A DNA stretch of 64,000 bases from Holophagales bacterium. GTDB taxonomy: Bacteria; Acidobacteriota; Thermoanaerobaculia; Multivoradales; UBA5704. Below, in pieces: positions 60,001 to 64,000 of this stretch; positions within the stretch are counted from its first letter, which is position 1; every line of letters begins with the position of its first letter. The stretch spans positions 12,100 through 76,099 of the forward strand of contig JANNIH010000072.1 of assembly GCA_031404815.1 (NCBI GenBank). Reading direction: 5' to 3'. Position numbers: made by a program.

Positions 60001-63000
60001 CGCTTTACCGCGTTCGGCTGGCAGGTCGCCACGATGCCCTTGCCTTCCTCTGGCGGGTTGATTCTCGGCGAGATGTTCGGCCAGCTCGAGCGCCTCTCTT
60101 GGCCGAAGTTGCCGCGCTTCGGCGCCGATCGCGCCCACCTCTTCGCCGAAGCGCTCCGGCGGTCGTTCGCCGACCGCTATCTGCTGGCCGATCCGGCGAC
60201 CACGCGCGCCGACGCCGCCCAACTGCTCGACCCCGCCTGGCTCGATCGCCGCGCCACTTCGATCGATCGCGGCAAGGCGTCCCCCTCGAAAGAGATCTCC
60301 CCTTGGCCGGGCGAGGCGCCCGCGGCCGAGAAGCCCGAAACGACCAGCCTCTCCGTGATCGACGGGGAAGGCAACATGATCGCGCTCACCACCACGCTCA
60401 ACGATCTTTTCGGCTGCGGCCTGTACGTCCCTGAGATCGGTTTTCTCAACAACGAGATGGACGACTTCGCGACCGCTCCGGGTCGGCCGAACCTGTACGG
60501 GCTGATCCAGGGCGAGGCGAACGCGGTGGCGCCGGGCAAGAAGATGCTCTCGTCGATGAGCCCGACGATCGCCTGGCGCGCCACGCCCTCGGGCGAAGAG
60601 GCGATCGCGCTCGGCGGTCGCGGCGGTTCGCGGATCCCCACCCATGTGGCGCAGGTCCTGCTCAACATGATGGTGGATGGCGACTCGCTCGCCGCCGCCC
60701 TCGGCCGCCCCCGGTTGCACCATCAATGGCTGCCCGATCAGATCGAGGTCGAGCCCGACACGTTTTCACCCGAGACCCGCACCGAATTGGAGCGACGAGG
60801 TCACGCGATCCAGCCCGCGATTCAAGGCGCCCGGGTGTTTGCGATCCATCGCTTGGCCGACGGCCGAATCGAGGCCGCGGGCGACCCGCGCGGACCGAAC
60901 GGCGCCGCAGTGGTCGATCCGGAGCGCTAGGCGAAGATCTTTCCAGATACACTCCGGCCGGTTTTTCTGCCATGAGCAAGGGGAGTCCGAGCATGGTCCA
61001 GGTGCTGGTGCCCAAAGAGCGCCGATCCGGCGAAACGCGCGTCGCCGCGACGCCGGAGACGGCGAAGAAGATGATCAAAGAGGGGCTCGCCGTCACGGTC
61101 GAACGGGGTGCCGGCGAGGCCGCCTACTTCTCCGACTCGGCCTACGAGGCGGCGGGCGCGACCCTCACGGACGCTCCCGATTGGCTGGCGGCCGACGTGA
61201 TCCTCAAGGTCGCGCCGTTTGCCGACCACGAATCGGCCAAGCCCGGTGCGCTCGCGATCGGCCTGTTCGCGCCGCATGGTCCGCTCGATCGGGTGCGGCG
61301 ACTGGTCGCCGGCAAGGTCTCCACCCTGTCGATGGAGCTGGTGCCGCGCATCACCCGCGCCCAGGGGATGGACGCCCTGTCGTCTCAAGCGTCGATCGCC
61401 GGCTACAAGGCGGTCCTGCTCGCCGCCACCCACCTGCCGAAGTACCTCCCCCTCCTAATGACCGCCGCGGGCACGATCAAGCCGGCGAAGATCGTCATCA
61501 TGGGCGCCGGGGTCGCCGGTCTCCAGGCGATCGGCACAGCGCGTCGGCTCGGCGCCGTGGTCGAGGTCTCGGACATTCGCCCGGAGGTGAAAGAGCAGGT
61601 CGAATCGCTCGGCGCCCGGTTCATCCAGCTCCCCATGCTCGAGCAGGAGAGCGGCGCCGGAACCGGCGGCTACGCCCGCCAGATGGGCGAAGATTTCCTC
61701 GTTCGCCAGCGCGAGATCGTGCGCGAGCGGCTGACCACGGCCGACGCCGCGATCACCACGGCCCTGGTGCCGGGCCGGAAAGCGCCCACCCTGCTCACCC
61801 GCGAAATGGTCGAAGCGATGCGCCCCGGGTCGGTGATCATCGACCTCGCGGTCGAACAGGGAGGCAACTGCGAGCTCTCACAGGCCGACCAGGAGATCGT
61901 CCACAACGGCGTCCGCATCTTCGGCCCCTCGAATCTCCCCGCGACCCTGCCGCACGACGCGAGCACGCTCTATGCGAGGAACGTCCTCGCCCTGCTTCTC
62001 CACGTCACAAAAAAAGGCGAGCTGGCGCTCGATCCGGAAGAAGAGATCGTGAAGGCGACCCTGCTCACCCACGACGGCCGGGTTTTCCACGCCCCGACGG
62101 CAGAGCGGTTGGCGGCGGAGGCTGGCGGCTGAGCGGGCGGGGAAGGCAACGCCGGGGCCTACTCGGGACCGAGAAGGACCCTCAGCTTTTGGGAGATCAC
62201 GACCACTAGATCGGGAGGAAGCCGGACCAAGAACTCAGCACGGCGTGCCCGCCAATCCAGGCTTTTGACTTGATCGGCGAGGACCACCCCAGAAACGGCC
62301 AGGTTTTCCGGAAGCGGCACCTCGAACGGATACCCCTTCACCTGCGATGTGACCGGGCAGAATAGGGCAAGACCAACCCGGGCGTTGTAAGCCTTCGGGG
62401 AAAGAATGACCGCCGGGCGACGGCCGGCCTGCTCATGTCCCGCCTGAGGGTCAAACGTCAGACGGACGACATCGCCTAGATCAGGTACATAGACCACTCA
62501 CCAAACCTCGTTCCCGACTGCCGGGCCGGTTGCGATCTCTTCGTGAAGATTCTCCTCGGTGATTCCCGCGAGAAGCTGTTCCAGGGTAAACACCGGGGCA
62601 GGGCGCGACGAGATCACGATGTCACCTTCGTTCACCGAAATCTCGACCGCTGTGTCCTCTTCAAAGCCAACACCTTTGGCGAACACCATCGGAATCCTAA
62701 CTGCCAGGCTGTTACCCCACCGTTGGACCTTGCCGTGCATCGCGCGCCTCCTGTATCTACAATGAGTCTACAGGTCGAGCTTCTCGTCGGCAAGTCGCCC
62801 CAACGCGGACGGGTGATTCCCTGCGGAGCGGGTGTCGGGATGGCTTCACATCTTGACCAATCAGAATTGAATCGCTAACGTAGATCAACCCTCGCCAATT
62901 TGTACTTCGCATTCACTATGGTGCCGCCAAGGGCGCGGGTGTCGGCCACATTCGACTACCAGAATTCAACCCAACAAACGCCCGCGGGGGCCAAAATGCA

Positions 63001-64000
63001 TAGGCTCGAATTACTTAGAACTCTAACGCTAGGAAGCTCGGTCGCCGAATTCGACGAGGATCTTGCTAGGTATTTTTTGCAAACTAACACCTTTGATCGA
63101 CTGGTCGAGGACAAGATCGACATTGTTGCTGGAGACAAAGGGTCGGGAAAGACGGCCCTCTACCGATACCTTAGCGACAATGCTGCGTCCATCCCTCAGT
63201 TGTCAAAGGTCACAGTGTTGCCTGGGTTCAATCCCTCTGGAGCTCCCGTCTTCCAGCGACTGACGCAGTCCGCGGCCTTGACGGAAGGGCAGTACGCCAC
63301 TGTCTGGAAGGCCTACTTCCTTTCTCTAGCCGGGAACTGGTGCCTTCCTTTCTTCGACGGGTCAGGATCCCAGGACGCAAAGAAGCTAGACCAATTGCTT
63401 CGACAGCTGGATCTGCGGATGACAGACGATGAACCGGTCTCAACCTTTTCCAGAGTTGCCGCCTGGGCTAAGCGTATGTTTAGCCCTCGCAGCCTCGGCA
63501 TTGAGTTCAAGGTTGACGCAAGCGGGCTGCCGGTTGTGACACCGACTGCTTTTTATTCGAGCAATGGAGACGAAGAAGCAGAGGAGGTACAGCTCACCAG
63601 CCACGAAGAGGCTCTTGGCGTGCTGGACGCCATGCTTAAAGACCTTGACTGCGTTGTTTGGATTGTCTTGGATCGACTCGATGAAGCATTCTTAGGCCAT
63701 CCTGAAGTAGAACTTCGTGCCCTGAGAGCCCTCTTCCGCGCCTATCTTGACCTGCGAGCATTTGGTAGTCTGCGCCTAAAGATCTTTATTAGGCGAGACC
63801 TATTCTCGAGGCTTTCTCAAGGCGGATTCGTAAACTTGACCCACGCAAATGCCAAGAAAGGGGAGATCATTTGGGATGACGACGACCTGCATGCTTTATT
63901 GTGCCGGCGATTGAAGGGAAGCGCTCTTTTCCTTGAGGGCCTAAAGAACTCGGGCCTTTCAGATTTCTCGGACCGGGGCATCTATGATGCGGTTTTTCCT

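Follow-up and report, generated by a model that had tools for sequence, protein, structure and literature searches.

The described systems closest to the locus considered here are P-loop nucleoside triphosphatases (NTPases) of differing architecture. STAND NTPases (NACHT, NB-ARC and Avs/NLR-like proteins) have a C-terminal repeat sensor and/or an N-terminal effector; BrxC/PglY acts within the six-gene BREX system together with PglZ, PglX and others; the archaeal Walker-type ATPases SSO1545 and PABY2304 are of the Pfam ATPase_2 (PF01637) type; and the NCBIfam family NF047389, 'P-loop ATPase, Sll1717 family', is named after Synechocystis Sll1717 and has no assigned function. Herein, we examine the end of a 64-kb stretch of Holophagales bacterium DNA (contig JANNIH010000072.1, positions 12,100 to 76,099), referred to as the window. 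An ATPase gene of the Sll1717 family runs off this end, preceded by a mazEF toxin–antitoxin pair and a pntAA-like gene. Taken together, the evidence set out below indicates that the final 1.9 kb of the window is probably the edge of a hotspot lying past an orphan pntAA and holding two unrelated acquisitions, of which the ATPase, as a stand-alone and mobile accessory gene, would most plausibly act against phages or mobile elements.

An Sll1717-family ATPase encoded by a single-gene cassette

The ATPase open reading frame (ORF) is in frame on the forward strand from an ATG at either 62918 or 62996, with the starts of homologues corresponding to the latter. Its first 335 codons occupy positions 62996–64000, and it is missing from the mechanical ORF list for the sole reason that it is open-ended and runs off the window, as had been supposed in the initial annotation. 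A protein search returned a homologue, P0001 (533 amino acids counted from the upstream ATG), whose sequence, where the two overlap, departs from the window translation at one residue only (E to K). P0001 is encoded on a 4,349-bp metagenome contig, L001, positions 1–1451 of which are 98.5 % identical to window positions 62550–64000. The L001 copy runs to position 1970, equivalent to 64519 and hence 519 bp beyond the window, and the full gene comprises approximately 507 codons (counted from 62996). From about position 2060 the GC content of L001 is back to 0.66–0.72, and the next genes, which are convergent, encode an MGDG-synthase/GT28 glycosyltransferase followed by a YARHG/DUF4424 protein (Pfam), with GC at third codon positions (GC3) of 0.82–0.83. 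Because the gene stops at this point and is followed by convergent genes of host GC, the low-GC element is a single-gene cassette of about 1.8 kb, consisting of one ORF and its upstream spacer. No convincing direct or inverted repeats were found in the flanks of the cassette in L001, where only pairs of 10–24 nt at chance level occur; likewise, searches of this position for tRNAs and Rfam RNAs found none, either in the window or in relatives, and no recombinase marks the site downstream of pntAA.

The composition of the ATPase segment is foreign. The ORF has a GC content of 0.528 and a GC3 of 0.576, compared with 0.63–0.70 and 0.82–0.88, respectively, for pntAA, GGT and TerC. The lowest-GC 1-kb stretch of all 64 kb starts at 62751 (0.542), some 3.8 standard deviations lower than the mean of the window (0.667, standard deviation 0.033), and GC drops to 0.50 in 62850–63149. 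The view that the segment was acquired horizontally is thereby borne out (GC3 of 0.58 vs 0.82–0.88), although the contrast of about 50 % with about 70 % given in the initial annotation was slightly overstated, the measured values being 53 % and 67–70 %.

With regard to family, full-length P0001 scores 154 bits against NF047389 (cutoff 75), aligning to positions 1–427 of 454, and the window fragment alone scores 123.4 bits over positions 1–294. By profile match, the cargo protein is thus a member of the Sll1717 family, with which it shares its length class (about 490–510 amino acids) and its motifs, with nothing structural that differs. Placement in NF047389 gives the protein a name but no explanation, since no function is assigned to the family and no publications on it were found. 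It is a large family: 3,218 cluster representatives (50 % identity) are matched at E ≤ 1e-3, and 551 at the stricter threshold of E ≤ 1e-30, with a distribution that is patchy across many phyla.

Both nucleotide-binding motifs are present as previously stated and are read directly from the sequence: Walker A, GDKGSGKT, at 63131–63154, and Walker B, IVLDRLDE (of the form hhhhDxxDE), at 63662–63685, each on the forward strand. An alignment of 99 homologues has a mean column identity of 55 % and 56 invariant columns, amongst which (in P0001 numbering) are G72, K74, G75, G77 and K78, then D252, D255 and E256, then R292, and finally the motif D383-G384...P390-R391-N392; a GN...PRN motif stands at the sensor-2 position. 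The catalytic elements of AAA+ proteins are all conserved. From this alignment, AlphaFold2 returned a model with a predicted local distance difference test score (pLDDT) of 89 and a predicted template modelling score (pTM) of 0.86. The predicted fold is an AAA+ alpha/beta core with an insert, a helical lid (321–445) and a C-terminal winged helix (~447–515), with pLDDT mostly above 90 in the insert, lid and winged helix. The insert, of about 100 residues (~111–212), follows strand 2 and is modelled as three helices and a beta-hairpin. Walker B lies at the end of the strand formed by residues 246–251, and R292, a putative sensor 1, at the end of strand 4 (285–292).

In structural comparisons of the model, the highest figures were obtained with the two archaeal ATPases, SSO1545 (2fna; 17.0) and PABY2304 (2qen; 15.1), followed by the N-terminal part of BREX BrxC (13.7), Cdc6/ORC (12–13.6), TnsC (12.1), RADAR RdrA (11) and the STAND proteins WRR4A, Avs5, Avs3 and CED-4 (10–12). 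As to fold class, the model places the protein as an AAA+ NTPase of the assemblage that joins ORC/Cdc6, archaeal ATPases and STAND proteins, and within this assemblage it departs from each of its described relatives. Identity to SSO1545 and PABY2304 is only 12–13 %, there is no PF01637 match in the window protein, and the insert after strand 2 is an addition relative to them. The architecture of ORC/Cdc6-like proteins (insert after strand 2, helical lid and C-terminal winged helix) is present in the model, and the Pfam ORC-CDC6-like profile (PF24389) gives 26.7–27.6 bits around its cutoff of 27, with only about 41 residues aligned; AAA_16 reaches 16.6–18.8 bits (cutoff 32.6). Unlike BrxC with its BREX partners, the window gene stands alone.

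The likeness to STAND NTPases consists of the hhhhDxxDE Walker B and the arginine at the end of strand 4. What differs is the absence of a C-terminal repeat sensor, of an N-terminal effector and of any nSTAND3 match above threshold; indeed, neither Pfam nor the model reveals a repeat sensor or an enzymatic effector domain anywhere in the 507 amino acids. All STAND profiles remain sub-threshold, with NPHP3_N at 14–16 bits (cutoff 24.8) for the window protein, and NACHT at 19.5–21.6 bits (cutoff 26.7) and nSTAND1 at 20.1 bits (cutoff 27.1) for family members. The label 'STAND/NACHT-like' from the initial annotation is therefore fair at the level of the AAA+ sub-assemblage and for the form of Walker B, but the protein is not a member of the NACHT family. 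A profile search of PDB sequences gave no hits, and Foldseek against viral structures returned nothing at E ≤ 1e-3.

Some family members (P0251, P0210, P0262, P0266, P0238 and P0191) are longer, at 700–1,070 amino acids, and have extra domains. The additions are R3H and OST-HTH/LOTUS domains at the C terminus, IF2_N at the N terminus, or a further P-loop module in tandem; every recognised added domain binds nucleic acids and none is a toxin.

A variable site downstream of an orphan pntAA

Bordering the site on its left, and lying outside any island, is the pntAA-like gene (transhydrogenase alpha, dI part) at 60972–62132 on the forward strand, which ends with a TGA at 62130–62132, exactly where the initial annotation had placed its end. 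The product carries the Pfam domains AlaDh_PNT_N and AlaDh_PNT_C; its NF006942 score is 399 bits (cutoff 383), with the alignment confined to profile positions 2–377 of 510, which correspond to the dI part. After a gap of 26 bp come, on the reverse strand, mazF (62159–62497; 112 amino acids), encoding a type II toxin endoribonuclease (PF02452, E=1.7e-24; NF007386, 134 bits with a cutoff of 120), and mazE (62498–62740; 80 amino acids), encoding the antitoxin (PF04014, 39.3 bits with a cutoff of 24.7). The two genes abut at 62497/62498 with no gap and run in the same direction, so that the pair, annotated at first as convergent, is real but convergent only relative to pntAA. As in MazEF of the E. 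coli type, the pair is tightly coupled with the antitoxin gene first, MazF lies above the equivalog cutoff and MazE belongs to the SpoVT/AbrB-type fold family; it differs in that MazE scores 63 bits against an E. coli equivalog cutoff of 113, and in its chromosomal location within an acidobacterial hotspot. Exact look-ups of the window MazF and MazE sequences matched no record. Between the divergent mazE and ATPase genes is a spacer of 255 bp (62741–62995), within which lies the left boundary of the young, low-GC cassette. It corresponds to what had been described as an AT-richer promoter region of about 250 bp, and its lower GC is confirmed; the promoters, however, are a matter of inference only, because no sigma-70 consensus was found in 62000–63200. 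Presumably, the spacer holds the promoter of the cassette.

Relatives were collected by scanning one genome per species with PntAA as query, which also placed the host within Thermoanaerobaculia (Acidobacteriota); pntAB and pntB queries taken from full-operon loci were then used in tblastn searches within 10 kb of pntAA. The closest loci (L002–L007) have PntAA proteins that are 90–93 % identical to that of the window, and the gene order SWIB-TerC-GGT-pntAA is kept in L002–L008. Neither pntAB nor pntB was found within 10 kb of pntAA in L002–L011, L013, L015 and L020, that is to say, they are not beside pntAA in 13 of the 15 sampled Thermoanaerobaculia relatives; nor did either match by tblastn anywhere in the 64-kb window or in L001, in keeping with the earlier observation that they do not directly follow pntAA. 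The ATPase gene is present in none of these 13 relatives. Since relatives without the ATPase also have no adjacent pntAB and pntB, the island did not interrupt the pnt operon, and the orphan pntAA is ancestral to this clade and older than the island. In some 60 more distant genomes pntAB and pntB directly follow pntAA. Thermoanaerobaculia are themselves split in this respect, with pntAA-pntAB-pntB intact in L012 and L065 and an orphan pntAA in L009–L011, L013, L015 and L020; in L013 and L020, pntAA is followed by a long ORF of about 550–640 amino acids.

The site downstream of pntAA is a variable cargo hotspot, as the interval between pntAA and the next conserved genes (two DUF3857/transglutaminase-like genes in L002–L005 and L007) is different in every close relative. 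These two genes, which bound the hotspot on the right in relatives, were found neither in the window nor in L001. The site in L002 (11152–14130) carries a decayed Fic gene and a mazEF pair whose products have 85 % (MazF) and 81 % (MazE) amino acid identity to the window copies, and that in L007 (11140–13100) an intact Fic gene (PF02661) with a mazEF-like pair (MazF 68 %). In L005 (1701–5290), a mazE remnant accompanies two low-GC ORFs, the same two being found in L003 (11152–14880); these ORFs, of 235/248 and 442/444 amino acids, have no Pfam match. L004 (11140–13870) holds Fic fragments and a low-GC ORF of 162 amino acids, and L006 and L008 have unrelated genes. The 162-residue ORF had been taken by eye for a PIN toxin, a guess for which Pfam gave no confirmation. 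At this site the ATPase is found only in the window and in L001, and it is absent from L002–L011; the synteny with pntAA that would be expected of a housekeeping gene is accordingly lacking.

The two acquisitions at the end of the window appear to differ in age. Across the spacer and the ATPase gene, the window and L001 differ by 5 mismatches in 1,260 bp (99.6 % identity), whilst 17 of 191 bp are mismatched in the mazE part (91 % identity), and the breakpoint in identity falls between 62732 and 62902. This breakpoint points to a recent event, either transfer or recombination, that involved only the ATPase cassette. The base composition of the toxin–antitoxin genes is intermediate (GC of 0.61 for mazF and 0.58 for mazE; GC3 of 0.66 and 0.68), and mazEF is an older, partly ameliorated resident that is common to sister species. 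No homologue of mazE or mazF was found in any of 97 other loci carrying members of the ATPase family. Given the divergence breakpoint, the presence of mazEF without the ATPase in relatives and the lack of co-occurrence elsewhere, the sequence comparisons indicate that mazEF and the ATPase are two independent acquisitions with separate histories, and not one system or a common island as was first proposed.

Genomic neighbourhoods and the case for a defence role

The 97 family loci were reduced to 79 by removing those of more than 90 % identity, and a scan at 62 loci covered 143 ORFs no more than two genes away from the ATPase. No recurring partner family was found across the 79 non-redundant loci. 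The commonest neighbours are type I restriction-modification methylases (6–7 of the 143 ORFs), followed by IS1595 transposases and integrases (3 each), P2 gpR/gpS, baseplate V, Mrr, AbiEii and IS110 (2 each) and HipA (1). A random gene has a chance of roughly 0.1 % of lying within two genes of a type I methylase, compared with about 6–8 % of loci here, which by this rough estimate, made without a matched control, amounts to a large excess. Type I restriction-modification neighbours are often co-oriented and abutting (L089, L109, L163 and L157): the ATPase gene stops 48 bp short of a same-strand hsdM in L089, follows hsdM-hsdS in L109, and overlaps the end of hsdM with its start in L163. At two further loci (L158 and L177), the ATPase gene is found between the P2-like tail-completion gene S (gpS) and baseplate gene V (gpV), and eight IMG/VR viral contigs carry a family member. 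The two nearest homologues, of 57–59 % identity, are in L179 and L181, and identity to the nearest homologues in general is only 55–60 %. In the former (6758–10079), the homologue, which is the closest to the window protein, has 131 bp downstream of it, and in the same orientation, a gene for a 554-residue Peptidase_C14 (caspase-like) protein, with an IS200-type transposase adjoining, and in the latter the homologue adjoins a DNA methylase. A member in L085 sits in an integrase/relaxase element, whilst that in L088 (7501–11245) lies between a ChlI fragment of 126 amino acids and a full-length comM/Mg-chelatase-like gene, an arrangement that looks like insertion with target duplication. The prediction of defence or mobile surroundings for such a gene thus fits what is seen around family members, namely restriction-modification genes, integrases, transposases and P2-like prophages.

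Within defence databases, there is a significant match to component C of the PADLOC candidate PDC-M28, a remote homology with E-values from 5e-17 (this protein) to 4e-22 (relatives) over profile positions ~157–256 of 480; no PADLOC match was returned for mazE or mazF. PDC-M28C shares with the window protein a similar association with restriction-modification systems. PDC-M28 is itself a candidate system, and its A and B components are absent beside the window ATPase. PADLOC PDC candidates come from a guilt-by-embedding set (Payne et al., bioRxiv 10.1101/2024.01.29.577857). The neighbourhood evidence gathered here is of the same guilt-by-embedding kind and is circumstantial.

On this basis a defence role for the ATPase is plausible, and we infer from its family, its surroundings and its absence from relatives that it is rather more probably than otherwise an accessory conflict or defence gene. 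Several results weigh against this. PDC-M28C aligns over no more than some 100 positions of its 480-position profile, and neither partner from that candidate system (A or B) is present. DS-41 of DefensePredictor (NF053860) yields 21.7 bits against a cutoff of 370, with similarity confined to the P-loop region, and searches for 'Sll1717' or 'PDC-M28' found no literature. The neighbour survey was made with a crude ORF caller and without a matched background control, some members lie amongst housekeeping or metabolic genes (L083 and L088), and tblastn gave no match in 50,697 INPHARED phage or 72,556 PLSDB plasmid records. In addition, the protein has no effector domain that could explain killing or restriction.

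As to how such a protein could work, it may be an ATP-dependent switch that would oligomerise on the nucleic acid of an invader via its insert and winged helix, by analogy with ORC/Cdc6, TnsC, MuB and BrxC. The oligomer would then occlude or mark the invading DNA or RNA and so block replication or expression; alternatively, it might bring in other systems encoded alongside, for instance type I restriction-modification. Because there is no effector domain, this mechanism of ATP-driven oligomerisation is a weak and doubtful proposal. It is an equally tentative extension that the Sll1717 family as a whole could be a widespread single-gene anti-phage protein without an effector, i.e. a minimal nucleotide-binding and oligomerisation domain that would sense and neutralise invader nucleic acid through ATP-dependent oligomerisation.

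The alternative that deserves the most attention is that the ATPase is a DNA-binding AAA+ switch of mobile elements or of regulation, acting in integration, partition or transcription control with no immune role, and that its neighbours are hitch-hikers. The fold is indeed nearest to AAA+ proteins that load onto DNA or select targets (ORC/Cdc6, TnsC, MuB and DnaA), neighbours include integrases, a relaxase with a type IV secretion system coupling protein and insertion sequence (IS) elements, the L088 member is beside a duplicated comM/ChlI fragment, and again no effector domain is present. Such a switch would not readily account for a lone cargo gene without a recombinase, which is the situation at the window site, in L001 and at most loci, nor for neighbours that vary by locus. 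The same-strand abutment to type I restriction-modification operons and the position in a gap between morphogenesis genes of P2-like prophages also speak for a defence factor, this being a pattern typical of defence morons. We consider the mobile-element explanation unlikely on the whole, if still a credible one.

The remaining explanations fare considerably worse. It had initially been proposed that one low-GC island, formed by mazEF and a STAND/NACHT NTPase, was inserted in pntAA-pntAB-pntB and opened a multi-gene defence system continuing beyond the window. The contiguity of the three pnt genes in about 60 distant genomes, L012 and L065 included, invites this reading, as do the low GC of the segment and the NACHT-type form of Walker B. 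It is, however, largely refuted and must be seen as very improbable, given that relatives with 67–93 % identical pntAA have neither pntAB/pntB within 10 kb nor the ATPase, that the end of the ATPase gene comes 519 bp beyond the window, with the GT28 and YARHG genes of host GC after it, that mazEF and the ATPase are of different age and never together elsewhere, and that the NACHT and nSTAND matches are sub-threshold. Nor is it at all likely that mazEF and the divergent ATPase form one module, in which the ATPase would sense infection and release MazF, or MazE would repress a shared promoter. Whilst both diverge from one 255-bp spacer, and abortive infection is a frequent role of toxin–antitoxin modules, the abrupt change in divergence between mazE and the ATPase, the count of 0 in 97 other family loci with mazE or mazF, and the mazEF pairs without ATPase in L002 and L007 all argue for separate genes. 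Finally, a native housekeeping ATPase, its GC being low by chance or for reasons of expression, could appeal to the few family members found amongst metabolic genes; this is exceedingly improbable, as the gene is absent at the locus from the ten closest relatives, the family is patchy across phyla and GC3 is 0.25–0.30 lower than in flanking genes.

The tidy account of an island that splits an operon and opens a large defence system reduces to a hotspot, an anciently orphaned pntAA, an old toxin–antitoxin pair and one young cargo gene. That gene is from an ATPase family that is extensive and has a name but is unstudied; its genomic surroundings and its fold make it a fair candidate for an immune ATPase that acts as a minimal single protein. 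If the proposal for the family as a whole were true, the Sll1717 family would be a minimal relative of both STAND and ORC/Cdc6-type (BrxC) immune ATPases. The family is tractable, requiring one gene of about 1.5 kb, and, if immune, it would add a widespread system that includes poorly sampled phyla such as Acidobacteriota.

Other features of the window

Elsewhere, a second small mobile or toxin–antitoxin patch of the window is made up of a PIN-domain (VapC-like) ORF at 8891–9298 on the forward strand (PF01850, E=2.6e-19; GC of about 0.56) and an adjoining IS481-type transposase gene (rve, LZ_Tnp_IS481) at 9633–10817 on the reverse strand. Near the start of the window, positions 223–3444 of the forward strand encode a protein of 1,073 residues, at the C terminus of which is a caspase-like CHAT domain (PF12770, E=8e-56), after which comes a 390-residue ORF (3390–4562, forward strand) with a GC content of about 0.57 and no Pfam match. 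An Acido-Lenti-1 small RNA (RF01687) is found at 28220–28265 on the forward strand with 40 bits (gathering score 37), which fits the acidobacterial origin of the DNA.

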